Source: Acidimicrobiia bacterium (lineage in GTDB: Bacteria; Actinomycetota; Acidimicrobiia; Spongiisociales; ZC4RG35). From it: 64,000 nt of DNA. Position numbers and translations under genes: made by a program. The notes below the pieces were generated by a model. That model saw nothing but the letters and a program-made list of their open reading frames with translations. It did no database searches and was not told the origin of the DNA. Shown in pieces: positions 9,911-23,932 of the stretch. The stretch lies in assembly GCA_965203555.1 (NCBI GenBank), contig CBDBCY010000004.1, forward strand, positions 1,472,001 to 1,536,000. The letters are read 5' to 3'. The stretch's first letter is position 1, and the number at the start of each line of letters is the position of its first letter.

Positions 9911-10735
9911 ATGACCTCGGCCTCTCTCACTCCACTACAGTTGTCCCGCCGCAGCCGCCTCCCCTACCACGAGTTAGAGAGACTGATCGCCACGGTCACC
10001 ACGGATACAATCCATCCCGGTTTGCCGCTGGCGGCTGAGATCGCCGATCGGACATCTCTTCTCCTCGGCATGCGAAAGGCGGGAGTACCGCTGCAGTACC
10101 TGGAAGGGCACGTCGACTTCGGCCCGGTGCGGGTGGGGGTGGATCGGAGGGCACTCATACCCCGGCCCGAGACCGAACAACTATGGGAACTGGTGGTCCG
10201 GTCGGTTCCGGTCTCTGTGCCGTCGGTGATAGTGGACATCGCAACCGGCTCGGGTGCGCTGGCCCTGGCCCTCGCTCACTCCTATCCGCAAGCGGAAGTG
10301 GTGGCCACCGACATCTCTTCGGAAGCTCTGGAATTGGCACGGGAGAACATGCGGGCCAACCGCTGGGTGGGGGGACGGATCGAGTTGCGAGAAGGCGATC
10401 TCTTTGAGGCTTTGCCGTCCTCGCTTCGGGGTGAGGTGGATATTCTGGTCTCCAATCCGCCCTACGTTACGGAGTCCGAATGGCCGGAACTTCCGTCCGA
10501 CGTGAGAGCCGAGCCCTATCAGGCCCTGGTGGCGGGCCCCCGTGGCACCGAGATACTGGAGAGACTGGCTGCCGGTGTGTCGGACTGGCTGAGACCATCG
10601 GGGACGGTAGTTGTTGAAGTCGGGGAAACCCAGGCCGCGGAGGTGCAGGAGGCTTTCCGGGCCGGAGGCATCAACGCCAGGATCAAACACGACCTGGCCG
10701 GTCGACGCCGGTTCGTATGGGGAAGCGTGATCTAG
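9911..10735 (+). CDS. prmC: Release factor glutamine methyltransferase
   Basis: PLQYLEG, LIPRPETE, DIATGSG, SNPPY. Confidence 0.93.
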   Translation: MTSASLTPLQLSRRSRLPYHELERLIATVTTDTIHPGLPLAAEIADRTSLLLGMRKAGVPLQYLEGHVDFGPVRVGVDRRALIPRPETEQLWELVVRSVPVSVPSVIVDIATGSGALALALAHSYPQAEVVATDISSEALELARENMRANRWVGGRIELREGDLFEALPSSLRGEVDILVSNPPYVTESEWPELPSDVRAEPYQALVAGPRGTEILERLAAGVSDWLRPSGTVVVEVGETQAAEVQEAFRAGGINARIKHDLAGRRRFVWGSVI

Positions 10736-10739
10736 GTTC

Positions 10740-11291
10740 ATGACCCTCCCACTTCTGACTCAGGCCTGCGCCATGCTGGCCGAAGGAAAGGCAGTGGGAG
10801 TGCCGACCGACACCGTCTACGGGCTTGCCACCCATCACTGGGCGCAACAGGAGCTTTTCCGGCTGAAGGGCCGCCCGGCGGACAAGGCCATTCCCGTCCT
10901 GGTGGGGTCGATCGACGATGCACTGAGCATTGCCGTGTTTCCTCCCATAGCCCGGGAACTGGCCGAAGGCCACTGGCCGGGGCCTCTCACTCTGGTTCTG
11001 GCGGTTGAAAACTCTGACGGGAACCGGAGCGGCAACACAGTCGGCCTTCGGATGCCCGACTATCACCTCACCCTGGAACTGCTGGACCTGTGCGGTCCGC
11101 TGGCTGTCACATCCGCCAACCGGTCGGGGGGTTCACCGGCGCGATCGGATCGGGAAGCCCAGGAAGTCTTCGGCGCCCAGGTCGAGGTCTATCTACCGGG
11201 AGTGTGTCCGGGAGGACTGGCCTCCACGGTGATCGAAGCGCTGCCCGGCCGAGATCCCCGTATCCTTCGAACCGGCCCTGTCACCCTGTAG
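10740..11291 (+). CDS. tsaC: L-threonylcarbamoyladenylate synthase (TsaC/Sua5/YrdC)
   Basis: PTDTVYGL, KGRP..K, TSANRSG, STVI. Confidence 0.92.
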   Translation: MTLPLLTQACAMLAEGKAVGVPTDTVYGLATHHWAQQELFRLKGRPADKAIPVLVGSIDDALSIAVFPPIARELAEGHWPGPLTLVLAVENSDGNRSGNTVGLRMPDYHLTLELLDLCGPLAVTSANRSGGSPARSDREAQEVFGAQVEVYLPGVCPGGLASTVIEALPGRDPRILRTGPVTL

Positions 11292-11350
11292 GTATCTTCG
11301 TCAAAAAGCCGACATTCCATTTGGTTGGGCAGGCCTGTTCGGATGGCCAG

Positions 11351-11692
11351 CTACCACCAACCTCTTGGGCGACTCTTTCGACCACCGCTTCTCGTCCTGT
11401 TGTAGCGGGGATTCCTCCCCCCGGATCTCCTGCGGTACTTCGCCAGCCTCGCCCCTTCCCAGCGTCGGGCCCCTTTACGAGAAAGGCGTCGGGTTTCCAC
11501 CCGCATCCTGCCTCGTTTGCCGGCCCGCCGGTGCTGTGCTGCCCTCCGCCGGGGGTTGTTGGTGATCCCCACATACTTCACTCGCCCCCGTCGGCCTCGG
11601 AGCGTATAGCCACGAACCCCTTTAGCCCTGGTGGTTCTTCTCCGAGATCCGCCTCTCGTCCTCCGATATCGCTTCTTTCTGTATCTGCTCAT
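11351..11692 (-). CDS. Small, extremely Arg-rich GIY-YIG nuclease-like protein
   Basis: GYTL...KYVGITNNPRRRAAQH (GIY-YIG core with Arg/His), later Glu (RRWE) and PRYN; promoter motif 9 nt upstream. Confidence 0.75.
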   Translation of the reverse strand: MSRYRKKRYRRTRGGSRRRTTRAKGVRGYTLRGRRGRVKYVGITNNPRRRAAQHRRAGKRGRMRVETRRLSRKGARRWEGARLAKYRRRSGGRNPRYNRTRSGGRKSRPRGWW

Positions 11693-11701
11693 AGGAGTTG
11701 A

Positions 11702-11723
11702 AATCTATCGACATCCGGTGACA
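11702..11723 (-). promoter_or_regulatory. PafBC/RecA-NDp-like promoter of the GIY-YIG gene
   Basis: Minus strand TGTCAC-N10-TAGATT, resembling TGTC(A/G)G-N10-TANNNT. Confidence 0.6.
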
Positions 11724-11852
11724 CCCCGTGGTTGCCACCATGCGATTGGATGAACCGGGGAACCTGTCTCAATACCCTTACCGATTTGAGATCCTCTCGG
11801 TTGGCCTTCTCTTAGTGTTTGTTTTAACAACTTAGTATTATACGGTGTTGTT

Positions 11853-11874
11853 TGTCACACCCATGGTGCATACT
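11853..11874 (+). promoter_or_regulatory. PafBC/RecA-NDp-like promoter of the DUF222-HNH gene
   Basis: TGTCAC-N10-CATACT, 7 nt before ATG 11882 (leaderless geometry). Confidence 0.6.
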
Positions 11875-11881
11875 GGTATGT

Positions 11882-13093
11882 ATGAACAGAAAAGATGTGA
11901 ACGGAACATCGGTGGTCAACCGGGTGCGTCTGTTGGCACCCACTCTGCCGGTTTCTCAGGCTTCGTCTGAGCAGTTGCGACAGCGGTTGAAGTCGACGGT
12001 CCGCGTTCAGAACCAGGCGGCGGCGATCCGCGCCGAGGTCCTGTCCGAGTTGCGCCGACGCAAAGGCGCCGAGGTGGTGGAAACCGTTTTGCAAAAGGAC
12101 GGTCTGCTGCCCCGACGGAAGGCCCGGTCAGAGGTGGAAACCGCCAAAGAATTGGAGGAACTGCCCAAGACGCGGGAGGGTTTCCAAAAGGGAGAGATCT
12201 CTGCTGACAACGCCCGGATCATCGCCGGCGCCAACCAGCGGGGAGAGATCGACGAAAATGAACTGTTGGACGGTGCCCGTTCCCAGTCTCCTGACAAGTT
12301 CGCGGCCACGGTCCGCAAACACGAACAAAAGCGTGCTCAGGATGATGGTGTTTCGAAGTTGGAGCATCAGCGGTCGCGGCGGTTCGCCAGGATCAAGACC
12401 GACCTTGAGGACGGGATGACCGTGCTGTACGGGCGGTTCGATCCGGTGACGGGTGCTCGGGTCGAGACTGCAGTGTCACGGATGATGAAACAACTGTGGC
12501 ATGAGGAAGACCCCCGGAACCGGGCCACTTCGGGTCAACGGATGGCCGACGCCCTGGCCGAACTTGTCACCCGTCAGGGAAAAGACGGCCGGTCCCAGGA
12601 TGTGCGGATGTTGCTGATCGCCGACTACCACGCGGTCAGCAAGGAACTTGGAAACCCCCGCCTGTCCGATGGAACCCCCATTCCCGCCCGGACGTTGCGG
12701 CATCTGGCCTGTGATGCTCAGATCCTGCCCGCCGTGTTCGCGGGGTCTTCGATACCCCTGGATTTGGGAAGGGCCCGCCGCAAGGCCAGCGGAACCCAAC
12801 GCGCTGCTCTCATTGCCCGCGACAAGCACTGTGTGGGCTGCGGCGCCAAAGCCTCCTGGTGTCAGGCGCATCACATCGTCCACTGGGCCGACGGAGGACC
12901 CACCGATCTGGACAACATGTGTCTTTTGTGCAGCAGATGCCACCACAAAGTACACGACAACGGCTGGACAGTACACCAGTCCCCACAGGGAAGATACTCC
13001 CTCCGCCGCCCACCGAACAGCCTCGGCCGCCCACCCCGCCGCCAGGCATCTCACCGGTACCGGCGCAGGCGAACTGTCCGACAACGCAAATGA
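11882..13093 (+). CDS. DUF222 / HNH endonuclease (REP13E12-like)
   Basis: QRMADAL, LACDA, PLDLGR, ARDKHCVGCG, CQAHHIVHWADGGPTDLDNMCLLCSRCHHKVH. Confidence 0.92.
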   Translation: MNRKDVNGTSVVNRVRLLAPTLPVSQASSEQLRQRLKSTVRVQNQAAAIRAEVLSELRRRKGAEVVETVLQKDGLLPRRKARSEVETAKELEELPKTREGFQKGEISADNARIIAGANQRGEIDENELLDGARSQSPDKFAATVRKHEQKRAQDDGVSKLEHQRSRRFARIKTDLEDGMTVLYGRFDPVTGARVETAVSRMMKQLWHEEDPRNRATSGQRMADALAELVTRQGKDGRSQDVRMLLIADYHAVSKELGNPRLSDGTPIPARTLRHLACDAQILPAVFAGSSIPLDLGRARRKASGTQRAALIARDKHCVGCGAKASWCQAHHIVHWADGGPTDLDNMCLLCSRCHHKVHDNGWTVHQSPQGRYSLRRPPNSLGRPPRRQASHRYRRRRTVRQRK

Positions 13094-13264
13094 ACCCATC
13101 CGAACCCCTGCTTCTCGACAACTAACCCGCGAAAACGACCGACACACTCTTAACCCGTTGCGCCCCTTGCCCACCCCAAAGTTCTCTTCGCGAACCCGCT
13201 GGAACGCAGGAAATAGTCAGCGCTATTACCACCATCCCAGCCAAACGGGGGGTAGTGTGAAAGC

Positions 13265-14300
13265 AATCTTGTGATTGATGTGAGCAGTCCGAGTCGGGTT
13301 GCTCGCTGAATACCATAGCCCGCCAACAGGTCGGGGAGTAGCTACCGCCGACCTTGGGTGAATAGGCGAGGCCATCTGTGTCCTCACGTCAATCACAGGA
13401 ACAACCCGATGACGTGAGGACAACCATGAAAGCGTGTGGAGGAACCCTACGAGGTTCTCGTCCAGGTAGGCACCCGCCCGACCTACTACCACAAGCGGGT
13501 GGCTTACACCGTGACCATCCCATACACGCCAAGTTGCCCACACCGTGGAGACACAGTCCCAGGTGTGTCGATGACCCGAGGCCGATAGCCCGAACCGAAG
13601 GATGGGGAGGCCCGAGCAAATCAGGCCTCCCCATCAATCTTCAGTCGAGTGATAGCTGGAGGCGAGGGCAGTCACGGGGGCCGCTGGGCGGAGCCCGGAC
13701 TCCAAATCCGAGCCTGGCGGGTTCGATTCCCGCTCCCCGTGCCATAGATGAGAGAGAAGCACTTCGCCGCCGAGCCCATCGAAGCGTATGGCGACGAAGT
13801 GGCTTTGGGCGAGCGGACGGTGTTCGGTTGGGAGATTCCCGCCCAGGAGACAAGGCGCGACTCTATGTGGAGTTGATGGCGATCAGAGTCGGATGGTCTA
13901 TGCCGGCTGTGCGGCAAGAAGGCCGGGTTAGACCTACCTCCTCCCAGGCCGAAGCGCGAGTCTGGCCGCCCAAACAGTGTGAACGGGGCGGGTGCGGGAC
14001 GTTGGCTTACCACTCGGCAGGTGCGCTGGTGTTCACGTCTGTGCTGGGCGCTGGGCAACGGGAAGATGCCGTGGATGTGGCAGATGCTTCACGATTCGGC
14101 AGGAGGGGCGTGTGGAGCCTGCGGGATCGAGAGGTTCGTGCCCCAGCGGACCAAGCCCTTCGTGGTCCGTAACCGACCGGTCCTCGGACCGAATGACTGG
14201 CCCAAAAGCGAAACGCCAAGGAGGACGCCAAGAGCCTTCAGCAACAGTGGAGGGCAGAACCCCGAGTCCGGAAGCCCCGGCATGACGAGAGGAGGTCGCT
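13265..14300 (+). ncRNA. Candidate large structured non-coding RNA or leader region
   Basis: No convincing protein; 17-bp, 13-bp and 12-bp stems plus many shorter hairpins, an embedded tRNA-like element and a possible -10 TAGTGT at 13253. Confidence 0.5.
13674..13744 (+). tRNA. Aberrant tRNA-Trp(CCA)-like element (pseudo-tRNA)
   Basis: Acceptor ACGGGGG/TCCCCGT + G + CCA; anticodon arm CGGA-CTCCAAA-TCCG; T-arm GCGGG-TTCGATT-CCCGC; D-arm reduced to CCGC-TGG-GCGG. Confidence 0.75.
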
Positions 14301-14364
14301 ATGAGCGGCAACGATGATCAAGCAGTAAAGCTGCGGAAAACACGAGTTTTGAAAGGATCGAGAC

Positions 14365-15592
14365 ATGGGAGCCTGTAAGCGAATTATCATCGCCGCTGTT
14401 GCCTTTCTGTGGCTTTTCGGCGTCATGGCCGGGTTCGTAACCCGCCCGACGCCAGCCGTAGCGGCAGGGTGTACCAAGACGACCAACACGCAAGGTCTCG
14501 ATGTGTGGAACTTCGCCGGGAACACTCGCGGAGGCTGGGCGGGGAAACCCGGTGGGGCGAGCAACTACGCCAAGACGCTTTGTGAGCAGGCAGCGGAAAA
14601 GCATGCCGCCACTACAACTACCGTGCCCGGCACGACCACGACCACGACCACTCTACCTCAGGACGATAATGATGCCGTCACGAGTGGGAGAACTGGGGGC
14701 GTGAACACCAATTCGGTTAAAACCACCACGGGTGGGACGACAGGTGTGAATGAGAACAGCCACAACCAGGCCTCGGCTTTGCCGAAGGCTTGGATTGAGG
14801 CCGCAGGGTTCATCCAGAAGCGCGGCCAAACCTTCGCGAAGTTTCTCGTAAAGGTGTCGCCCGCCAACACCAATCGCATCTACGTGAGGTATAAGGTGAC
14901 TCAGTCCGGGGGGCCCGTTGCCAAACGGGCATATCTTACCTACCGTGGCTCCTCTAACTACGCTGAGGTCGATAACGGTCAAGGGCCTATTGAAGTAGGT
15001 GTCCTGGAAGAGGTCGCCACTGAAGGCAGGATCTGGGCCCAGATCCTGCCGGCCGATGAGACGGGTGGCATCTCGTACACCCTGGCGAAGACATCCAGTA
15101 GGCCCGACAAGGTCTCCATCCGTGTGGCCGCCACCGTAACTGACGATGAGTGCGCCGAGGGCAAGGAGGATATCGACGAATATGACCTACCAGATGTGAC
15201 GGTCGGGAAGCGCACAATCAGCCCTGGGACAATCGAGGTGGACCGGTGCAAGGACGTCACCGGGAATATCGCGGCGAACGCGGCGAGCAAAATAGTGGCG
15301 AAACTTCTTCAACACTTGCCTACCGATGACTCTGAGTGCCTACACGCGTCGTGCTTTCGCCAGATCCGACACTATGAGGCGGTATACGCTTGCTTCGAGG
15401 CAAGGGTTGCGGATGCGATCGAGCATACGATCAACGTGGTTCTTGTGAATGCCCCAGGTGAGATCGAGTGGTCCGATTGTGTTATCCCGGAGGACCCCGC
15501 CTGGCCGATAATTAGCGTCGCAAAGGAAGGTAATGTCGATATCGGCGCCGATGAGATCGTCTTCAAGTTCCCAATCCAACCGGATACTTGGA
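14365..15592 (+). pseudogene. 5' part of large secreted Calx-beta-like protein, interrupted by IS21
   Basis: AAGGA RBS, signal-peptide-like N-terminus, Thr-rich linker; joins in frame with 17884-21713 once the IS and one TSD copy are removed. Confidence 0.85.
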
Positions 15593-15657
15593 TGATGACG
15601 ATCATCGAAAGTACCCAGAGTCGATCAGCGAAAGTTCCCACCCTGGGTTGGGTGGTT

Positions 15658-16443
15658 TTAGGCTAGCAGGTCTCCTTTCGGTCGGTGTTTTCGGGCTTGG
15701 GCTTGGTAGCTTCTCAGGCGGTAGCTGTCGCCGGTGATGGTGAACACCACGCTTTTGTGGAGCAGCCGGTCGAGCATGGCGGCGGCGATGGTGTGGTCGG
15801 AGAAGATCTCTCCCCACGACGCGACACCGAGGTTGGTGGTGAGAATGATCGATCCTTTTCCGTACCGTCTGGAGATGACTTGGAACAGGGTGGCGGCGTC
15901 TTCTGCCGGCATGGGCAGATAGCCCAGTTCGTCGATGATCAACACTTTGGGGGTGTTGAAGAACCGCAACGTTTGGGCCCATCGTCCTTGTAGGGCGGCT
16001 TTGCGGCACCGCGCCGCCAGGTCCGCAGCGGTGGTGTAGTACACCTTGTGACCGGTGTCTACCGCGGCGCGGCCGAGGATGACCGCCAGCATGGTTTTGC
16101 CCACGCCGGGCGGTCCGATGAACAAAACGTTGGAGGCATCGGCCAGGTAGGCCCCGGTAACCAGCTCTCTTACCAGTTTCTCGTCGACGCTGGGTTGGGC
16201 GGTGAAGTCGAAGTCTTCCAGTTGCCATCTGGTGGGGAAGTTCGCCAGTTTGAGACGGGTTTCCCATCGCCGTTGTTCGGTGGTCTCGACTTCTACTCGA
16301 AGTAGACCTTCAAGGAACTCGGTGTGGCTTTCACGGTTGGTTCGTGCCTGTTCGAGGTGGGTGGGGAGCGCCTCGGCGGCGGCGGGTAGGTTGAGGTAGG
16401 CCAGATGGCCTCGCAGCTGTTGGTACACCGATTGGTTCATCAC
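15658..16443 (-). CDS. istB: IS21 helper ATPase IstB
   Basis: LEDFDF, GPPGVGKT, IIDELGY, IILTTN, AAAMLDRLLH, GDSYR. Confidence 0.96.
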   Translation of the reverse strand: MMNQSVYQQLRGHLAYLNLPAAAEALPTHLEQARTNRESHTEFLEGLLRVEVETTEQRRWETRLKLANFPTRWQLEDFDFTAQPSVDEKLVRELVTGAYLADASNVLFIGPPGVGKTMLAVILGRAAVDTGHKVYYTTAADLAARCRKAALQGRWAQTLRFFNTPKVLIIDELGYLPMPAEDAATLFQVISRRYGKGSIILTTNLGVASWGEIFSDHTIAAAMLDRLLHKSVVFTITGDSYRLRSYQAQARKHRPKGDLLA

Positions 16444-17738
16444 AGCCCCGCTTTTCGGTTTTGTTGGTCGATGTGCCGCTGGTACACCTCCAGATCGATC
16501 ACCGTTTCGGTGTACAGGTCTCCGATACCGGCGGCGATAGCCAAAGCCGCGTCTGATGGCGGACGGTTGGGTTTGGGTTTGCAGGGTGGTTTGGTGGTGA
16601 ACTCGGCTAGGACCACGTTCTCCAAAGCGGCGGTGTGTTCGGGTAGCCGAACCACCCGTCCCATACCGCGGGGTGCCTGCTGGTGGGTGGCGACCAGCCG
16701 GCCACTGGCCGAGAACATGCTGATAGTGGGGTCACCGAGCCTCCATCGGACGGTGACCTGGGTTCCTATCACCCCTGGTGGCACCGAGTATCGGTTACCG
16801 CGTACCGATACCAGCCCGTTGGATGTCACCCTGCGCTCCAAAGTCCCTTCTGCCGGGTAAGCCACCAGGGGCAGCTCGAGGAGAGGCTCGGTCTTGGCCA
16901 GCTCACCCACCGTGCTCTCACCCCGTGGGCGAAGATCGCCCACGGTCTGGCAGAATCTGTCCAGACTGTGCTGTGCTTCGGCGATGCTGGTCACCGCTGC
17001 GGTGCGCCACCACCGCTGAGAGACATAGTGGATGGCCTTTTCCACCACGCCTTTCCGTTGAGGACGGCGCGGTGGGCACGGGTCAACAACCACCCCATAA
17101 TGTTTGGCTACCCCAACGAACGACGGCTGGATACGACCGGTGGCGGCGACCACGGTCGCCATCCGATCCACCCTCCACCGCCGCGGGGTACCCTCCAGTC
17201 GTCTCAACACCTGGTCAAGACCCTCCACCAAATGGGGTTGGTCCTGGCGGGACGTGATCCACGCCCGAAAAGCGCCCGAGTGCGACAGCACACCCACCAG
17301 CACATGAGCGGTGGCTCCCCACGGCGTGTCACGTAACTCCACCCAGTCCCACTGGCACTCCTCACCCGGTGGATGATCGATGATCGCCGTGGCCCGGCCC
17401 CTGGTACCCGCACAGGCGCCACACAACGGCCGCAGGCCCCGAAGACGGACCTTCCGCACGAACGTCGGGTAGCTCTGCTCATAGCCCAAAGCCACCACCT
17501 CGTCGAACAACGCCGACCCCCACACATGCGGATCATCAGACAACCGCTGCCGCACATACGCCTCGAACTCATCAAACAGATCCGCCCCCGCCCGGGCACG
17601 CTGACCGGGCACCCGATCGCCCGACAGATACGCTCGCACGGTACGGCGGCTCTTACCAACATGACGGGCGATAGCCGAGATCGACCACCCCCGCCTCCTC
17701 AAAGCATGAACTTCCACGCACTCCTCCAGTACCAACAT
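16440..17738 (-). CDS. istA: IS21 DDE transposase IstA
   Basis: N-terminal HTH (SISAIARHVGKSRRTVRAYL), PGEECQWDW, VDRM, KGVVE, NRYSVP. Confidence 0.95.
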   Translation of the reverse strand: MLVLEECVEVHALRRRGWSISAIARHVGKSRRTVRAYLSGDRVPGQRARAGADLFDEFEAYVRQRLSDDPHVWGSALFDEVVALGYEQSYPTFVRKVRLRGLRPLCGACAGTRGRATAIIDHPPGEECQWDWVELRDTPWGATAHVLVGVLSHSGAFRAWITSRQDQPHLVEGLDQVLRRLEGTPRRWRVDRMATVVAATGRIQPSFVGVAKHYGVVVDPCPPRRPQRKGVVEKAIHYVSQRWWRTAAVTSIAEAQHSLDRFCQTVGDLRPRGESTVGELAKTEPLLELPLVAYPAEGTLERRVTSNGLVSVRGNRYSVPPGVIGTQVTVRWRLGDPTISMFSASGRLVATHQQAPRGMGRVVRLPEHTAALENVVLAEFTTKPPCKPKPNRPPSDAALAIAAGIGDLYTETVIDLEVYQRHIDQQNRKAGL

Positions 17739-19277
17739 AAAGGGCAGGGCTCCTCTCCACAGCTAGGAAATGTGACAATCCCTTAGCTTGGAGAGAGCCC
17801 TACCCAACAACGGGCATTTACCCCCAGGAGGTGGGAACTTTCAGTGATCGAGACTGGGAACTTTCAGTGATCGCCAACATGGAGGTACGAAGGCTCCCTT
17901 TTCGACCTGGATAATGCCCCAAAGTTGCGTGTCTCTATCGTTCAATTCGGCAATGTACTGACGAAGGATGCCCCCACTACCGCACCAATAGCCGCTAGTG
18001 AGGGCAAGCTGAAATTGGGTATACACCCTAACCGCTCTGGGTGGGTAGACCTCCAACTTCATCCCGGGTCCTGGTATAGCCGGACGGATCCCTACTCAGC
18101 CAGAATACAAATCAATGACAACAGGCCGGCGGCCTCCGTCAGCGCCAACTCTCCCGATCCTGGTAAGGATGTCGTCTTCACGGTGACCATGGATACCTCG
18201 GGCAATTTCGACGTGGTTCTGAAGATTGAGCAGGAGGGGGGTGTCCTCTCCCGGACCGTCACTGAAAGGACGGTGTATGTAACAAACGGCACTGGGTCCA
18301 TCAACCTTGGCACCAAGGCCAAGACTGCTGGAACCGTGACCGCCAAGATCCGGGATGATGATTGGAACCCCTTTCGGGTCGCCACCAGGTCGGCTACAGC
18401 GGCGGTCGGTAGCCTCCCAGAGCTTTTTGTCTACAAATACCAAACAGGCACTGTGACTGAAGGCCAAACCGCCTACTTTGTCATTGCTTCCAAAGACTGG
18501 ACTCCGGTCCCGTGGGATGTGACGGCGAAATTCTTCCGGGTGCAATACGGGTCGTTCGCCAACTGGAGTGGTAAGGGACAGATCACCATCCCTGAGGGCT
18601 CGTCATACTCCAACTGGATCCGGGTCACCATTCAGAAGGACAACTGCAAGGAGTCCGATGGTTGGGTCGGCATCATCCTTGATAAGGACGACAAGTACGA
18701 ACTGGCCGAACCCTCCGCCGACAAAGTGGATGTGGTCGATAACGACGGGTCCTCGGCGGATTGCTCTAGCGTATCGACAACATCGCTTTCAACCAATTGG
18801 GCTGACACGGTGAGGATGGTTAGGACTACGGGTAGTGTGGGCGGAGGGACCACCACGACGACCACCACGACCACGACGACCACCACAACTACCACGACAC
18901 CCGTGACTACCTGCTCGTCTGGCCAGTCGAAGAAGAATGGCGTTTGTGGCTACCCGGTGCTGACTATTGAAAGGGTCTCATCGAGCGTTACCGAGGGTCA
19001 GAAGGCTGAGTTCCGCATTCGCTCGGACCGCGATCTTCCAAGGGGTACGAACGTAGGAGTACGCCCCTCGCCGAGCGGCAACTACGGTATTGGTACTGCG
19101 GTTACGTCCGTCAGGATTGACAACGGCCGGTCATGGACCTTCGGTTGGTACACCACTGATGACTCCACGGACGAGGCGAACGGTTCGGTCACCGCTACCC
19201 TGGGCTCTGGCCATGGTGATTACACGGTGGGGTCGCCTAGTTCAGCCACGGTAACGATAAGGGACAACGACGAGGCT

Positions 19278-19935
19278 CCGGTGTTGTCGGTTTCTCGGCA
19301 CTCGTCGAGTGTGACCGAGGGCGGCACTGCTTATTTCCGGGTGACCTCGGATAGGTCTGTGCCTTCCACTATTTCGGTGGGTTTTTCCCGGTCGCAGAGT
19401 GGGTCGTTCGCGAGTTGGAGCGGCAGCGGAACGGTCACCATTAGCAGCGGTAACACCCGGTCGGGGTGGATCAGCGTGAGCACTGTCAATGACAGCACAG
19501 ACGAACCGAACGGTTCGCTCACCCTCACTCTGAACAGCGGAACCGGTTACACGGTGGGGTCGCCGTCGTCTGCTTCGGTGACCGTCAACGACGACGATGT
19601 TGCGCCTTTGCCGGTGTTGACGGTTTCCCGGTATCAGTCGAGTGTGACCGAGGGCAGCACTGCCTATTTCCGGGTGACCTCGGATAGGTCTGTGCCTTCC
19701 ACTATTTCGGTGGGTTTTTCCCGGTCGCAGAGTGGGTCGTTCGCTAGTTGGAGCGGCAGCGGAACGGTCACCATTAGCAGCGGTAACACCCGGTCGGGGT
19801 GGATCAGCGTGAGCACTGTTGATGACAGCACGGACGAACCGAACGGTTCGCTCACCTTGACTCTGAACAGTGGTACCGGTTACACGATCGGGTCGCCGTC
19901 GTCTGCCTCCATCACCGTCAGGGACAATGATGAGG
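19278..19935 (+). repeat. Near-identical intragenic tandem duplication, 333-bp period
   Basis: Two copies encoding SSVTEG.TAYFRVTSDRSVPSTISVGFSRSQSGSFASWSG... Confidence 0.9.
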
Positions 19936-20332
19936 CGCCCGTCACCTGCTCGTCTGGTCAGGCTGAGAAGGATGGCGTCTGTGGCTACCCCGTGCTAACT
20001 GTCCATCAGGATGACCGATCCTCGGTTACCGAGGGTTCCTATGCCGATTTCAGGATTCGCTCTGATCGGCCGTTGCCGGGCACCCTAAAGGTGGAGGTTC
20101 TCCGGTCACAGCGTGGAGACTTCACCACCCAGACTGGTGTTACCTACTGGGAATTGGGAACGGGTAGTACCTCCGGAAGTGGGAGGATTTCGACCGTAAA
20201 TGACTCGACGGATGAGACGGATGGCAGTGTTACGGTCACGATCCGAACCCACTCTGGGTGGCGCTCTGAGTACAGGGTTGGAACACCCAACTCCGCTACG
20301 GTCACCGTCAGGGACAATGACGAGTCGGTGGT

Positions 20333-21067
20333 CACCTGCTCGTCTGGTCAGTCGAAAAAGAATGGTGTCTGTGGTTACCCGGTGCTGACTATTCGGACTA
20401 GTTCGTCGGACATCACCGAGGGCCAGATAGCCTCCTTCCAGATCCATTCTGACCGTCGCGTTCCGAGGGTGGCCCCAGCCGCGTGGCGAATGGCAGGGGC
20501 GTGGACCGTGAGAAACTGGTCCACCACAATCTCCGGAGGCGATGGACCCTGGCGCATCCTTCGGTGGCGTACTCCCGATGACTCCACCGATGAGCCGGAT
20601 GGTTCGGTGGAGATATCCTTGCGGAGTGGCTCCGGCTACAGAATGGGGTCACCATCGTCCGCTACGGTGACAATCCGGGATAATGACGAACCTACCTGCT
20701 CGTCTGGTCAGTCGAAAAAGAATGGTGTCTGTGGTTACCCGGTGCTGACTATTCGGACTAGTTCGTCGGACATCACCGAGGGCCAGATAGCCTCCTTCCA
20801 GATCCATTCTGACCGTCGCGTTCCTGGATCCCTCAGGGTGGCCCTCAGCCGCGTGGCGAATGGCAACTATGGGGCGTGGACCGTGAGAAACTGGTCCACC
20901 ACAATCTCCGGAGGCGATGGACCCTGGCGCATCCTTCGGTGGCGTACTCCCGATGACTCCACCGATGAGCCGGATGGTTCGGTGGAGATATCCTTGCGGA
21001 GTGGCTCCGGCTACAGAATGGGGTCACCATCGTCCGCTACGGTGACAATCCGGGATAATGACGAACC
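20333..21067 (+). repeat. Near-identical intragenic tandem duplication (360/375 bp)
   Basis: Two copies of TCSSGQSKKNGVCGY...IRDNDEP; the first copy is 15 bp shorter near 20465-20500. Confidence 0.9.
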
Positions 21068-21740
21068 CGCCGTTGTTCCAGTGGTCAGCATCAGTGGTGG
21101 TAGGTCTGTCACTGAGGGAGGAAACGTGGTGTTTACCCTCACCGCTACTCCGAAGCCCACGAAGACGATATCGGTCAAGGTGCATATTGCGGACCCCTAC
21201 AACGATGATCCGGGAATAACCATTTTCCTCACCGATTACAGCGAAAGGACCGTGCGCATCGGCACCAGCGGTAGGGCCACACTCTCCCTTGCCACCGATG
21301 ATGACCAGACGGAGGAGTCGGACGATGATGTGGTGGCTACCATCAAGTCGGGGACCGGGTATCGCATTGGTACTGCCTCAGCCTCGGTTCGGGTGAGGGA
21401 CAATGATGCCCCGGCCACGCCACGTGCTCGGGTTGGTAGTTATGGCAGTGTCGCCGCGGGAAATAGGTTGGGTGCCTGGGTTGGGTTCTACAATGTGGAT
21501 AACCCTCCGACCAGGGTGCGGGTCAAGATAGAACGGCCAGGGTACACCACCGTATACAGGTGGATAACCACGAGCAGCGACTCGAATGGCTGGAAGTTCG
21601 GTCGTATCTCGGAAACCACCTGGAAGGCGGGGTGGGCCAAAATCACGGTTGTGTCGGGAACCGGATACACCTTTGGGGCGACCGTCTCAATCCGAATCTA
21701 TCCCCGAAATTGATGGTGGGTAGCCGATCCCCAATCAACG

Positions 21741-21770
21741 AAAGGGAGGCTGGGCAACCGGCCTCCCTTT
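21741..21770 (+). terminator. Intrinsic terminator-like hairpin, possibly bidirectional
   Basis: AAAGGGAGGC-N10-GCCTCCCTTT just after stop 21713. Confidence 0.7.
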
Positions 21771-21790
21771 CACTTGCCAAAATATTCCCA

Positions 21791-21974
21791 CACGGAAAAC
21801 TGATGGCCATGGCCGACGCGCTCGGTCTCGACCCGGAGTGGATACAGGCCGAGGGCTTCCCCCAGGAACATTTTCGATATCGGTCTCGCTAAGCGGCGTG
21901 ACGCTGTCGCGTTGGGCGCCAAGGAGGTGACCATGAAAGTGTTGGGCCGGATGATGTTCTCACGTCCCGTGTGA
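21791..21974 (+). pseudogene. DUF4031-like fragment, 5'-truncated and frameshifted
   Basis: HGKLMAMADALGLDPEWIQAEGFPQEH / FDIGLAKRRDAVALGAKEVTMKVLGRM after removing one T in TTTT 21871-21874. Confidence 0.6.
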
Positions 21975-22186
21975 GCCTTCCCATCGTCTTTCCGGGCGTT
22001 CACCAGATTCCCATCGCTTCGCGTGTTCCGCGACGCATGATCAACGTCAACATTCTGGAACGCCGATCGAGTGACTTCCAAACCGGCCCTTGGATTATGA
22101 ACTCGGGTGCCTTCACCCGTATCATTTCGGGGGAGGGGCATTTGGCGCCGGGTATCCGAGTAGGACGCAAGGGTGGAACCAGCTGA
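21971..22186 (+). pseudogene. N-terminal fragment of a phage-type tRNA-guanine-transglycosylase-like (DUF7221/DpdA-like) protein
   Basis: FPGVHQ...INVNILERRSSDF..GPWIMNSGAFT resembles the WIMDSGAF motif; GTG overlaps the upstream TGA; truncated at 71 aa. Confidence 0.5.
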
Positions 22187-22249
22187 TGCGCCTGGCGCAC
22201 ATAGTGGGCATCACCCGCCGAAAGACCACCTACCCCCATGTTTATTCCT

Positions 22250-23932
22250 TCAAGTATGCGAAACCCGCTGGGACAGTTTTCGATGAAATGTCTCGACTTT
22301 CCCGATTCGCCTTCTTTCGCGATCTCCTTCTGGTGACCCGAAGCGATCCTCCTGCGAGGGGCGAAGCGCCCGTCGCATGATCTTGCCGGTGGTGGTGCGG
22401 GGCAGTTCGTCGAGGAAGGTGACCTTGCTGGGGGTTTCATGAGCAGCCAGCCGGGTGCGGACATGGCTTTGTAGCTCGGAAGCGAGTTTTTCTGAAGGTT
22501 CGAAACCGGGGCGCAAGACTACGAACGCCGCAGGCACGTGTCCGCGGATCTCGTCCGGAACCCCCACCACCGCACACATCGACACCGCCGGGTGGGCCAT
22601 CAGGCTTTCTTCGATTTCCCCAGGGCCGATCCGGTAGCCCCGAGAGGTGATCAGGTCGTCCTTTCGGCTTCGGAACCACAGATAACCGTCGGAATCCTCG
22701 ATTCCCAGGTCGCCGGTGAGCAGCCAATCGTCCCGGTACTTCTCGGCGGTGGCATCGGGACGATTCCAGTAGGCGAGCATCATCACCGGATCGGGAGAGC
22801 GAACGCATATCTCTCCCTCCTGGTCGATCAGGCGGTTGCCCTGTTCATCTTGGACCTCCACCCTGTGTCCCGGGAGTGCCCGGCCCATCGACCCGGGCCG
22901 CACCGGCCAGACGGAGGCGCAGTTGCCTACCACCAGGTTGGCCTCGGTCTGCCCGTAACCCTCGTTGATATGGCACCCCAGAGTCTGCTCAGACCACTCC
23001 AACATCTCCGCTCCCAGGGGTTCGCCACCCGTGAAGATCGCTCGCAAAGACAGGTCAGGACGGTTGACTCCGGAGGCCCGCATCATCTTCAGAGCGGTAG
23101 GCGGCAGGAAAGCCAGCGTTACCCGATGCTCGGCCATCAGGTCGAAAGCAGCGCCCGGATCGAACCTCTCCTCGTCGGAGGTTAAAACCGGTATCCCGTA
23201 GTACCAGGCGGGAATCAGTGCATCCATCAGACCACCCAGCCATGCCCAGTCGGCGGGGGTCCACATGACGTCGTCCGGCTGGGGAGGGAACTCGTAATAG
23301 CACTCGAACCCGGTCAGATGCCCGAACAGGGAGCGGTGCGCATGAAGAGCGCCCTTGGGCGGTCCGGTGGTGCCCGAGGTGTAGATCAGATAGGCGGGAT
23401 CCTCTCCCACGGTGTCGACGGGCGCCATTGCAGGACCGGAACACAATTCATCGAACTGAGGACCGGTCTCGATCGCCGGCAGGTGAGGCGCCGCTTCCTC
23501 CAGTTTGGCCCGGCTGTCGGGATGCACGATGGCTGCCTTGGCGCCTGAATCGGAAAGACGGTAGGAGATGGCATCGGGTCCGAACAGCGTTGCCAGGGGA
23601 AGCGACAAGGCGCCCATTCTCCACAGGGCAAGATGGGCCAGACCGACCTCCAATGACTGGGGGGCGATGATGGCCACCCGATCACCGCGCTCGATTCCCA
23701 TCCCGGCCAGGCCTGCGGCAAGGCGTGAGGAAAGGTCGGTCAGTTGCCCGAAGGTGTACCGGGACGCCGCCCCCGACCGGTGAGCGACCACCAATGCAGT
23801 GGAAGAGGGGTCTTGTTCGTCGGCACACGCCACACCCAGATTGAACCGTTCCGGAATCTGCCAACTGAAGCTACTGACCAGCGACTCGTATGTCATTCCC
23901 ACGTATGGGTTCAGCATCCGTCGCCCGCTCAA
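22250..23932 (-). CDS. Acyl-CoA synthetase (AMP-binding family)
   Basis: YTSGTTGPPKG, EGYGQTE, TGD, RKDDLI, PRTTTGKI. Confidence 0.93.
   Translation of the reverse strand: MSGRRMLNPYVGMTYESLVSSFSWQIPERFNLGVACADEQDPSSTALVVAHRSGAASRYTFGQLTDLSSRLAAGLAGMGIERGDRVAIIAPQSLEVGLAHLALWRMGALSLPLATLFGPDAISYRLSDSGAKAAIVHPDSRAKLEEAAPHLPAIETGPQFDELCSGPAMAPVDTVGEDPAYLIYTSGTTGPPKGALHAHRSLFGHLTGFECYYEFPPQPDDVMWTPADWAWLGGLMDALIPAWYYGIPVLTSDEERFDPGAAFDLMAEHRVTLAFLPPTALKMMRASGVNRPDLSLRAIFTGGEPLGAEMLEWSEQTLGCHINEGYGQTEANLVVGNCASVWPVRPGSMGRALPGHRVEVQDEQGNRLIDQEGEICVRSPDPVMMLAYWNRPDATAEKYRDDWLLTGDLGIEDSDGYLWFRSRKDDLITSRGYRIGPGEIEESLMAHPAVSMCAVVGVPDEIRGHVPAAFVVLRPGFEPSEKLASELQSHVRTRLAAHETPSKVTFLDELPRTTTGKIMRRALRPSQEDRFGSPEGDRERRRIGKVETFHRKLSQRVSHT

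Follow-up and report, generated by a model that had tools for sequence, protein, structure and literature searches.

Does a tRNA-like gene with the identity signals of tRNA-Trp and a D arm reduced to a minimal hairpin encode a genuine tRNA or an imitation of one? The question is raised by a 71-nt element in the 64-kb stretch of DNA analysed here (the window), which the initial annotation had described as a pseudo-tRNA, kept as a mimic or decoy. Its anatomical claims are borne out by the sequence: the length, A1-U72, the discriminator G, the encoded CCA, the anticodon CCA and the canonical T arm are all in place, there is no U8-type linker, the D arm reads CCGC-UGG-GCGG, a hairpin also backed by family covariation, and the anticodon stem extends to 7 bp (GCCCGGA/TCCGAGC) with one C.A mismatch. 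The parts of the element are as follows.

13674..13744, plus strand: putative compact-core tRNA-Trp(CCA) gene, 71 nt with encoded CCA, from ARAGORN and the family covariance model R2
13674..13680, plus strand: 5' strand of the acceptor stem (partner strand 13734-13740), with A1-U72 and G7.U66, read from the sequence
13681..13691, plus strand: minimal D hairpin CCGC-UGG-GCGG, 4-bp stem and 3-nt loop, abutting the acceptor stem with a 0-nt linker
13693..13713, plus strand: anticodon arm, stem GCCCGGA/UCCGAGC of 7 bp with one C.A mismatch, loop CUCCAAA
13702-13704, plus strand: anticodon CCA within the loop CUCCAAA, read from the sequence
13714..13716, plus strand: variable loop CUG, 3 nt, read from the sequence
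13717..13733, plus strand: canonical T arm GCGGG-UUCGAUU-CCCGC, read from the sequence
13741..13744, plus strand: discriminator G73 (13741) and encoded CCA (13742-13744)

In its 7-bp acceptor stem (ACGGGGG/TCCCCGT, seven pairs, among them A1-U72 and the wobble G7-U66) and its 5-bp T stem, which closes a T loop of the GTTCGAnnC type, the element matches a canonical tRNA. Such a tRNA also has the unpaired bases 8 and 9 between acceptor and D stems, about 7-11 nt in the D loop and 5 bp in the anticodon stem, whereas here the linker is 0 nt, the D loop 3 nt and the anticodon stem 7 bp, with the C.A mismatch at the pair equivalent to 27:43. The same division is seen in a comparison with the canonical tRNA-Trp(CCA) of the genome (G000:C4:201803-201878). 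Both have the loop CUCCAAA, A1-U72, G73, a 7-bp acceptor stem and an identical T stem GCGGG/CCCGC, with T loops that differ by one base. However, in the canonical gene the linker is 2 nt long, the 4-bp D stem closes a loop of 10 nt, and the anticodon stem and variable loop measure 5 bp and 5 nt, against 7 bp and 3 nt in the compact gene. According to PMC9976931, Trp identity is set mainly by three elements, namely the anticodon, the first pair of the acceptor stem and the discriminator, which is G73 in E. coli and B. subtilis, and no Trp determinant in the D arm is named in the available sections of that source. All three components of this identity set (G73, C34 C35 A36 and A1-U72) are present in the window copy.

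ARAGORN calls the element tRNA-Trp(cca), 71 nt long with the anticodon at position 29, which agrees with the Trp isotype read earlier and is the sole tRNA call within the window; dinucleotide shuffles of the window gave one ARAGORN call in 60. At Rfam gathering thresholds the window has no match (the gathering score of RF00005 is 29 bits), and the element thus does not score as an ordinary tRNA, in line with the non-canonical character first assigned to it. The best Rfam match in E-value mode is tRNA-Sec (RF01852) with 36.2 bits, below the cut-off of 47, and a tRNA-Sec identity was rejected on this score, on the anticodon (CCA rather than UCA) and on the 3-nt variable loop, which leaves no long variable arm. 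In the loci of three relatives, Rfam called 38 tRNAs and missed the compact gene in 3/3. The folding energy of the single sequence (z = -0.36) is not informative in such G+C-rich sequence, and single-sequence z-scores were non-significant overall (-0.36 to -1.90). With R2, a covariance model built from 54 family sequences including the window copy, the element gives a full-length match of 84.6 bits (E 6e-19 over the whole genome), the highest score among all copies scored and that of one of the 54 training rows, while the canonical tRNA-Trp of the genome reaches 46.3 bits. A chance origin of the element is excluded.

The family was defined in this analysis by the layout 7 / 4-3-4 / 1 / 7-7-7 / 3 / 5-7-5 / 7 plus discriminator, and its members were scored by R2. 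In words, the D stem follows the acceptor stem with a 0-nt linker, has 4 bp and carries a YGG loop of 3 nt; after a single unpaired base come the anticodon stem of 7 bp, a variable loop of 3 nt, an ordinary T arm and G73. The exact D-hairpin pattern gave 0 loci in genome contigs, and a looser pattern was then used; the scan by spacing and loops recovered 22 loci from representative bacterial genomes, and viral contigs contributed another 37. The layout is the same in every one of the 62 instances parsed, a set that counts the window copy and two relatives as well. The pattern itself fixed the spacing, the three loops, the inner pairs of the D stem and some of the anticodon loop, so that these are conserved by construction; the length of the variable loop and its third G were likewise fixed and are not independent evidence. 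When the anticodon was left free in the pattern, 45/59 viral matches carry CCA. Among the bacterial-genome matches, 12/22 carry Myxococcota-lineage titles. BLAST of the 2.5-kb region against named phages gave no matches, and the 71-mer gave a single match of 49 nt, to a tRNA-pseudo in Bacillus phage Mater. Mycobacteriophage Adephagia has a tRNA-Trp that was considered as a possible member, but it is annotated with 73 nt, scores 36.5 bits with R2 and is not compact.

Covariation across the 54 distinct sequences supports this fold. Paired cells make up 92.5% of the total, compared with 38.6-45.4% in slid controls, both-sided changes occur at 20/23 pairs, and the observed covariation score was reached by 0/500 shuffles. 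The acceptor stem has both-sided changes in 7/7 pairs (90.7% of cells paired) and the T stem in 4/5 (99.3%). For the D helix, 98.6% of cells are paired and both unconstrained pairs covary, namely 8:18 (GC 36, CG 12, AU 5, GU 1) and 9:17 (CG 28, UA 15, AU 4, GC 3, GU 1) of the outer D stem. The two extra pairs of the anticodon stem covary as well, both 20:40 (GC 42, AU 5, GU 3, other 4) and 21:39 (GC 22, AU 15, CG 9, UA 3, GU 1, other 4). ARAGORN draws the D arm differently, as a 3-bp stem with a loop of 6 nt after a linker of 2 nt, and in the 54 members this alternative stem is paired in 59.9% of cells with no both-sided changes. Because of this difference in pairing and covariation, the 4-bp/3-nt D hairpin, rather than the D arm of ARAGORN, is the predicted fold that evolution supports. 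Other positions are looser: the pair equivalent to 27:43 is unpaired in 10/54 members, 7:66 in 20/54 and the loop-closing pair in 23/54, and an encoded CCA is found in 23/54. The 1:72 pair is AU in 33, GU in 12, UG in 5, GC in 3 and other in 1. G73, which the pattern left free, is present in 54/54 members, and the Trp identity signals noted in the initial annotation agree with the determinants given in PMC9976931. Other members score with R2 82.3 bits (the relative G060), 79.3 (Acinetobacter phage phiAbaA1) and 75.7 (the relative G047), all three being training sequences too.

A second, diverged copy (copy 2) lies elsewhere in the same chromosome and scores 58.1 bits with R2. Relative to the window copy (copy 1), its anticodon stem has two compensatory changes, C-G to G-C and G-C to A-U. 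Together with the family-wide covariation, these changes uphold the earlier proposal that the arms are kept by selection rather than left by random decay. Copy 2 departs from the consensus in that one base is missing in a G run, the D loop is 4 nt, the closing pair is A.G and CCA is not encoded. The flanks of the two copies are unrelated and have no protein in common; besides the tRNA itself, they have only a 53-nt stretch in common. BLAST of the 301-nt region against 41 relatives found only these two copies and matches of 24 and 34 nt with a borderline E-value in G003 and G036.

What the family does may be approached from the company it keeps. At least five other tRNAs lie within 1.5 kb at 16/22 genome loci and 11/37 viral loci, while no other tRNA is found within that distance at 13/37 viral loci. 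A second Trp call is found at 0/59 loci. In G060, ARAGORN finds 21 tRNAs for 18 amino acids in ~2.7 kb, without Trp or Cys, and the compact gene, separated by 1 nt from the tRNA-Thr downstream of it, supplies the Trp member that this cluster lacks. In phiAbaA1, the compact gene is the only Trp among 13 annotated tRNAs (t01-t13). Cultured Acinetobacter and Vibrio phages carry the gene, and related copies are found in 23 Acinetobacter-phage and 12 Vibrio-phage records, where a 'tRNA-Trp' annotation lies under the match in 3/23 and 1/12, respectively; in most named phage records the gene is unannotated or under a protein call. ARAGORN missed 21/59 loci. The family travels mainly in phage genomes and tRNA gene arrays.

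On this evidence, the window element is probably an intact, horizontally acquired, non-canonical but genuine tRNA-Trp(CCA), a member of a widespread family and not a decoy. The gene would be transcribed and the RNA then excised by RNase P and 3' processing enzymes, as for its array relatives, and it would be charged by the TrpRS encoded by the single trpS of the genome, via G73, A1-U72 and the CCA anticodon, to decode UGG. The core layers lost from the D loop and variable loop may be replaced by the stacked mini D hairpin together with the two additional pairs of the anticodon stem, and the two G's of the D loop may then contact the T loop, itself unchanged, in the manner of G18 and G19. Acceptance of such a core by the bacterial ribosome and EF-Tu is suggested by the genomic context of the family.

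This predicted solution of the fold would be that of mammalian mt-tRNA-Ser(UCN) and, in part, of tRNA-Pyl, as reviewed in PMC7609411. In the 'type I' mt-tRNA-Ser(UCN), the linker is reduced, the D loop small, the anticodon stem elongated and the variable region 3 nt long, and the G18/G19 and T-loop motifs are retained (PMC7609411). However, this tRNA is mitochondrial and has Ser identity, its linker is 1 nt and its anticodon stem 6 bp, and the likeness is one of architecture with no homology implied. The tRNA-Pyl of M. barkeri, D. hafniense and M. alvus has a linker of 0-1 nt (none in M. alvus), a D loop of 4-5 nt, a 6-bp anticodon stem and a small variable loop, while it is described as lacking G18/G19 and the T-Psi-C motif, reading UAG and being charged by PylRS (PMC7609411). 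A tRNA-Pyl identity of the element was rejected, as its anticodon is CCA and not CUA, its D loop UGG and its T loop UUCGAUU; only the compact layout is common to both. Other non-canonical tRNAs of phage tRNA clusters are the (8/4) tRNA-Ser and tRNA-His, which PMC5389517 describes with an altered, tRNA-Sec-like split between acceptor and T stem, whereas the compact gene keeps the normal 7/5 branch and has its D and anticodon side rebuilt; 'Trp' does not occur in the main text of PMC5389517. A limited literature search found no description of the compact architecture for a bacterial or phage tRNA-Trp, which does not prove it unpublished.

Synteny shows that the window copy came in with a mobile insertion of ~11 kb, which contains the following features.

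11292..22249, no strand: insertion of ~11 kb between tsaC and an AMP-binding enzyme gene, from Pfam matches and synteny
11852-13093: DUF222/HNH endonuclease, within the insertion
13601..13635, plus strand: hairpin with 12 perfect bp, located 38 nt upstream of the tRNA, where it forms a terminator-like end of the preceding unit
14365-15666: 433-aa ORF, function not assigned, within the insertion
15658-17738, minus strand: IS21 istB/istA, within the insertion
17925-21713: 1262-aa Calx-beta repeat protein, within the insertion

The gap between the flanking genes is 10,965 bp here, compared with at most about 2.6 kb in 13/16 same-genus genomes, which thus lack the insertion, these 13 being the ones with both flanking genes on one contig. 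An R2 scan at E <= 1e-9 found matches in 3/151 genomes of the bacterial family (G000, the genome studied here, included) and in 0/10 same-genus genomes. PHROGs and Pfam scans of the island and the neighbours of copy 2 found no phage structural genes, and the domains recovered were HNH, IS21, Calx-beta, SLH and DUF4143. The terminator scan did not call the hairpin at 13601..13635, which has no T run after it; the one site it did call is on the minus strand and not relevant to the tRNA. That the element might be an att-site fragment of the host tRNA, an alternative raised by the initial annotation itself, was checked and rejected: it is a full-length cloverleaf that is not identical to the 3' half of the canonical tRNA-Trp, its 3' 25 nt have no second copy in the window at <=3 mismatches, and none of the direct-repeat families in window positions 11000-23000 includes the tRNA.

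Three other readings have to be weighed against a genuine tRNA-Trp. As the host already has a canonical tRNA-Trp, the window copy is dispensable and could be an unexpressed passenger, that is, an intact family gene that came with mobile DNA, has no use in this bacterium and will decay. The mosaic island with its HNH endonuclease and IS21, the lack of any promoter-like site near the gene in a scan limited to the sigma-70 consensus, the absence from the 10 same-genus genomes scanned and the deviations of copy 2, which could be early decay, are all consistent with this. Yet copy 1 tops the family in score, albeit as a training row of the model, and shows no visible decay, the compensatory differences in the anticodon stem are expected under structural selection, though the copies may be separate acquisitions, and solo copies are common in viral contigs. 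We therefore regard a silent passenger as unlikely. A regulatory or decoy mimic, made but idle in translation, would work by titration of TrpRS, in the way of tRNA-Other, or as a sink for an anticodon nuclease. The non-canonical body that fails the tRNA model of Rfam would fit such a role, and a speculative link has been drawn between the tRNA genes of phages and tRNA-cleavage defences (PMC3203893). The precedent is tRNA-Other of B. cereus, likened here by description, a Trp-anticodon pseudo-tRNA beside a genomic island that is not an ordinary tRNA, being poorly charged and off polysomes (PMC3399842). However, tRNA-Other has an effect on the expression of trpS1 that was examined by way of the T box system (PMC3399842), whereas no T box (RF00230) was found at E <= 0.01 in this genome (95% complete), and with one trpS there is no second synthetase to regulate. 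The compact family, unlike tRNA-Other, is the Trp member of otherwise ordinary tRNA arrays and phage tRNA sets, and it keeps its acceptor stem, T arm and G73 under covariation. The same architecture within phage and bacterial arrays with no second Trp call, the Trp slot of G060 and the only annotated Trp tRNA of phiAbaA1 all speak against the pseudo-tRNA, mimic and decoy proposals of the initial annotation, which we now consider very improbable.

The last of these readings is a tRNA-Trp with changed decoding, in which the CCA anticodon would read UGA as well, owing to the rebuilt hinge where D arm, anticodon stem and variable loop meet. It draws on the Hirsh suppressor (G24A) and A9C mutants and on the tRNA-Trp(CCA) whose anticodon stem has 4 bp, which are likewise altered near the D-arm/anticodon-stem hinge; according to PMC13092985, an unpaired top anticodon-stem pair, which adjoins the hinge, or A9C/G24A promotes UGA reading by tRNA-Trp(CCA), and the 4-bp-stem form is patchy in bacteria and prominent in Myxococcota among other phyla. 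The compact tRNA, without positions 8-9, has a wholly different hinge, the 27:43 equivalent is mismatched in the window copy and unpaired in part of the family, and one compact relative in a viral contig carries the anticodon UUA on a Trp-like acceptor stem. On the other hand, the 4-bp-stem and Hirsh variants keep a normal D arm and lose one stem pair, while the compact family has a longer stem and a smaller D arm; moreover, phiAbaA1 is annotated with ordinary genes and no sign of recoding. Changed decoding is thus a long shot. Downstream of the tRNA, reading TGA as Trp gives only a low-complexity 230-aa frame, which is not counted as evidence. It could further be speculated, with little confidence, that the compact core is adaptive and not just an oddity that is tolerated, giving tRNA-Trp(CCA) of phages and mobile arrays new properties such as Hirsh-like reading of UGA and UGG, or the ability to go unseen by host enzymes or by defence nucleases whose recognition depends on the canonical D arm or elbow. 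Either property would explain the Trp dominance of the architecture among the anticodon-free pattern matches.

If members of the family are working tRNAs, bacteria and phages use a minimal-core tRNA of a kind reviewed so far, in the available part of PMC7609411, only for mitochondria and tRNA-Pyl. The family also marks a blind spot of annotation, as the standard tRNA models miss it (Rfam in the window and the three relatives, ARAGORN at 21 loci), so that Trp genes may be undercounted in tRNA arrays and in the tRNA sets of phages; in one survey, Trp was among the rarest isotypes in arrays, at about 2% (PMC4758250). A natural compact tRNA-Trp body would be of interest to engineers of orthogonal tRNAs and for the study of how the hinge between D arm and anticodon stem tunes UGA reading, the subject treated in PMC13092985. 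In this genome, the gene is a marker of the foreign insertion. The window copy is a solo gene there, outside any array.

The element at 13674-13744, initially annotated as a Trp pseudo-tRNA with a collapsed D-arm, is probably a genuine, compact-core tRNA-Trp(CCA) gene, and every anatomical feature then listed for it is present in the sequence.

13674-13744, plus strand: compact tRNA-Trp element, 71 nt, read from the sequence
Within it, plus strand: acceptor stem, 5' strand ACGGGGG and 3' strand TCCCCGT
Within it, plus strand: D hairpin CCGC-TGG-GCGG, next base A
Within it, plus strand: anticodon stem-loop GCCCGGA-CTCCAAA-TCCGAGC
Within it, plus strand: variable loop CTG
Within it, plus strand: T arm GCGGG-TTCGATT-CCCGC
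Within it, plus strand: 3' end, G followed by CCA

ARAGORN, the check proposed initially, calls the element tRNA-Trp(cca), 71 nt, with the anticodon at position 29, and makes no other tRNA call in the window; as 60 dinucleotide shuffles of the window gave 1 call in total, this call by itself is unusual, not decisive. The view that the element is no ordinary tRNA agrees with Rfam, which has no match in the window at gathering thresholds and, in E-value mode, matches the element best to tRNA-Sec (36.2 bits, cut-off 47). The folding energy of the element (z = -0.36) is uninformative in G+C-rich DNA.

The genome holding the window (G000; 3.4 Mb, 62% G+C, four contigs, window at G000:C4:1472001-1536000) has 47 tRNAs according to ARAGORN, with a canonical tRNA-Trp at C4:201803-201878. 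In the canonical gene, the linker is 2 nt long, the D stem 4 bp with a loop of 10 nt, the anticodon stem 5 bp, and the variable loop 5 nt. A tRNA-Sec gene lies at G000:C2:39578-39672, on a separate 163-kb contig (the main contig is 3.1 Mb), and the 'tRNA-His(atg)' called by ARAGORN at G000:C4:628250-628327 (minus strand, outside the window), with several stem pairs mismatched, seems to be either a false positive or a tRNA in decay. When the region was searched by BLAST against 41 relatives, G000 alone matched, at two places, and the genome holds a second, diverged compact tRNA.

G000:C4:2564248-2564318 (L004:1499-1569 in its extracted locus), outside the window: copy 2, diverged compact tRNA-Trp, 82% identical to the window copy

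Copy 2, at which ARAGORN makes no call, has the same layout as the window copy. Two of the differences in its anticodon stem are compensatory (C-G to G-C, G-C to A-U); the C.A mismatch is repaired to C-G, the closing pair is lost, the 5' G run is shorter by one G, the D loop is 4 nt, and CCA is not encoded. The sequences flanking the two copies are not alignable, and the conserved unit is thus exactly the tRNA-like sequence. Upstream of copy 2 are an SLH-domain surface protein and a small Trp/Tyr-rich ORF, and a cluster of five ordinary tRNAs is found ~2 kb away. Where the island in the window ends on the right, a 53-nt stretch (21900-21951) is 81% identical to G000:C4:2564356-2564408, the ribosome-binding site and first codons of a 161-aa ORF directly downstream of copy 2; the frame of the window version stops after 13 codons. 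A paralogue of the 161-aa ORF, 43% identical, lies at C4:3021258-3021641. The 53-nt similarity could be a remnant of a mobile unit common to both places, or could have arisen by chance.

A covariance model built from the two G000 copies (R1) and applied to 151 genomes from the taxonomic family of G000 matched mostly ordinary ~75-nt tRNA-Trp genes, along with two 68-nt matches, in genomes G060 and G047. Both of these share the layout but differ in stem sequence, and both encode CCA and are located in dense tRNA arrays. A pattern scan that constrained nothing but the spacing, the two inner pairs of the D stem, a YGG loop, YTCCAAR, one G of the variable loop, and the T loop then matched 22 loci in species-representative genomes and 37 in viral contigs. 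The titles of the genome matches are those of MAGs from the Myxococcota lineage, Acidimicrobiia, Planctomycetota, Gammaproteobacteria, and Bacteroidia. The layout is common to all 62 parsed instances, including the window copy, G060, and G047.

Across 54 distinct sequences (duplicates removed), standard pairs fill 92.5% of cells; sliding the 3' partners by 1-3 columns lowers this share to 38.6-45.4%. Changes on both sides occur in 20 of 23 pairs, and none of 500 shuffles reached the observed covariation score. The two extra pairs of the anticodon stem covary, as do the two outer pairs of the D stem, while the alternative D stem of ARAGORN pairs in 59.9% of cells with zero both-side changes. 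Loops, spacing, and four D-stem positions were set by the search pattern and therefore carry no independent weight, but G73, which the pattern left free, occurs in 54/54. Pair 1:72 is AU in 33, GU in 12, UG in 5, GC in 3, and other in 1, and CCA is encoded in 23 of the 54 members. Still unexplained are pair 7:66, non-standard in 20/54 (the commonest bases are G at position 7 and A at position 66, each in 24 members), and the loop-closing pair, non-standard in 23/54.

Most members of this compact family have other tRNA genes nearby. At least one other tRNA is found within 1.5 kb at 20/22 genome loci and 24/37 viral loci, at least five at 16/22 and 11/37, respectively, and none of these loci has a second Trp call. 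In G060, the array called by ARAGORN spans about 2.7 kb, with 21 tRNAs that cover 18 amino acids but neither Trp nor Cys; the compact gene, between tRNA-Met and tRNA-Thr and 1 nt from the latter, is its only compact-scoring member (82.3 bits, others at most 30.1). Between tRNA-Tyr and tRNA-Arg of this array, at L156:9607-9675 (minus strand), is a weak 69-nt tRNA-like match (16.3 bits) without an ARAGORN call; Cys is otherwise absent from the array. Cultured phages carry the gene as well, in 23 Acinetobacter-phage records ('tRNA-Trp' annotated under the match in 3) and 12 Vibrio-phage records (in 1). In phiAbaA1, it is annotated as tRNA-Trp (10009-10079), the sole Trp among 13 tRNAs (t01-t13). 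ARAGORN calls the compact gene at 38 of 59 loci, while the Rfam tRNA model missed it in all three loci where it called 38 neighboring tRNAs.

Some GenBank phage records already name compact genes tRNA-Trp. In a full-text literature search of limited extent, the architecture appeared undescribed for bacterial or phage tRNA-Trp, and the consulted parts of a review of non-canonical tRNAs (PMC7609411), whose main text lacks the word 'phage', and of a paper on novel cloverleafs (PMC5389517) describe no such tRNA-Trp. The '4-bp stem' tRNA-Trp treated in PMC13092985 might include compact genes.

The window copy was acquired horizontally, within an insertion flanked by two genes.

10740-11291: tsaC, one flank of the insertion
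22250-23932, minus strand: AMP-binding enzyme gene, other flank

These genes are 10,965 bp apart in the window. Of 16 same-genus genomes, 13 have both on one contig, and in those 13 the distance does not exceed about 2.6 kb. A covariance model from 54 sequences (R2) scored the window copy, one of its training rows, at 84.6 bits, copy 2 at 58.1, and the canonical tRNA-Trp at 46.3. At E <= 1e-9, among the best 33 candidates per genome, R2 matched 3 of 151 taxonomic-family genomes (G000 counted) and none of 10 same-genus genomes; the tally includes G139, G163, G064, and G172, flagged as unpublished, as non-matches only. Beside the tRNA, the insertion carries a DUF222/HNH endonuclease, an unknown 433-aa ORF, IS21 istA/istB, and a 1262-aa Calx-beta repeat protein, and no phage structural genes were found in it. 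No repeat of the tRNA 3' end was found either, which speaks against the att-site copy considered initially. The Calx-beta gene is made up of tandem repeats of about 330-390 nt (region 18900-21400), some 93-100% identical, and two identical 19-nt direct repeats, 23 nt apart past the istA end (17832-17873), are probably part of the IS21 terminal repeats.

According to the parts consulted of PMC9976931, Trp identity resides in the discriminator, the anticodon, and the first acceptor pair, the D arm not being involved; the element has all three, and G000 encodes one trpS. The design of mt-tRNA-Ser(UCN) and tRNA-Pyl, as described in part of PMC7609411, resembles the compact layout in its reduced linker, small D loop, longer anticodon stem, and 3-nt variable loop. 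The 7-bp stem and stacked 4-bp hairpin would restore the length of the anticodon limb, and the two D-loop G's would then stand in for G18 and G19, facing a T loop that is unchanged. The structure and its conservation, the setting in tRNA arrays, and the horizontal acquisition are shown by the data; we infer that the compact element is transcribed, processed, charged, and used in decoding. A gene lying silent as an unused passenger in this bacterium seems unlikely, even if no promoter-like site was found near it. The initial suggestion of regulation like that by Bacillus cereus tRNA-Other, for which the consulted text of PMC3399842 offers a precedent, fits poorly, as no T box was found in G000 and the array context of the family suits such a role badly. 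The boldest reading, that the compact tRNA-Trp(CCA) may also read UGA, is improbable; by analogy, changes at the hinge between D arm and anticodon stem (A9C, G24A, or an unpaired 27:43) enable tRNA-Trp(CCA) to read UGA according to PMC13092985. In the compact family, this hinge is rebuilt, and the pair equivalent to 27:43 is C.A in the window copy.

Beyond Trp, an anticodon-free pattern matched 59 viral loci, 45 with CCA, nine well-folding with other anticodons (CAU three times, GUA twice, and UAC, CCU, UGC, and UUA once each), and five that do not fold. Bacillus phage Mater (KM236245.1) has an unannotated compact-layout tRNA with anticodon CAU and discriminator A (L090:1187-1258; R2 41.3 bits) between annotated tRNA-Asn and tRNA-Glu. 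The UUA tRNA, on viral contig L116, has a Trp-like acceptor stem (A1-U72, G73) and is possibly an ochre suppressor derived from the compact family.
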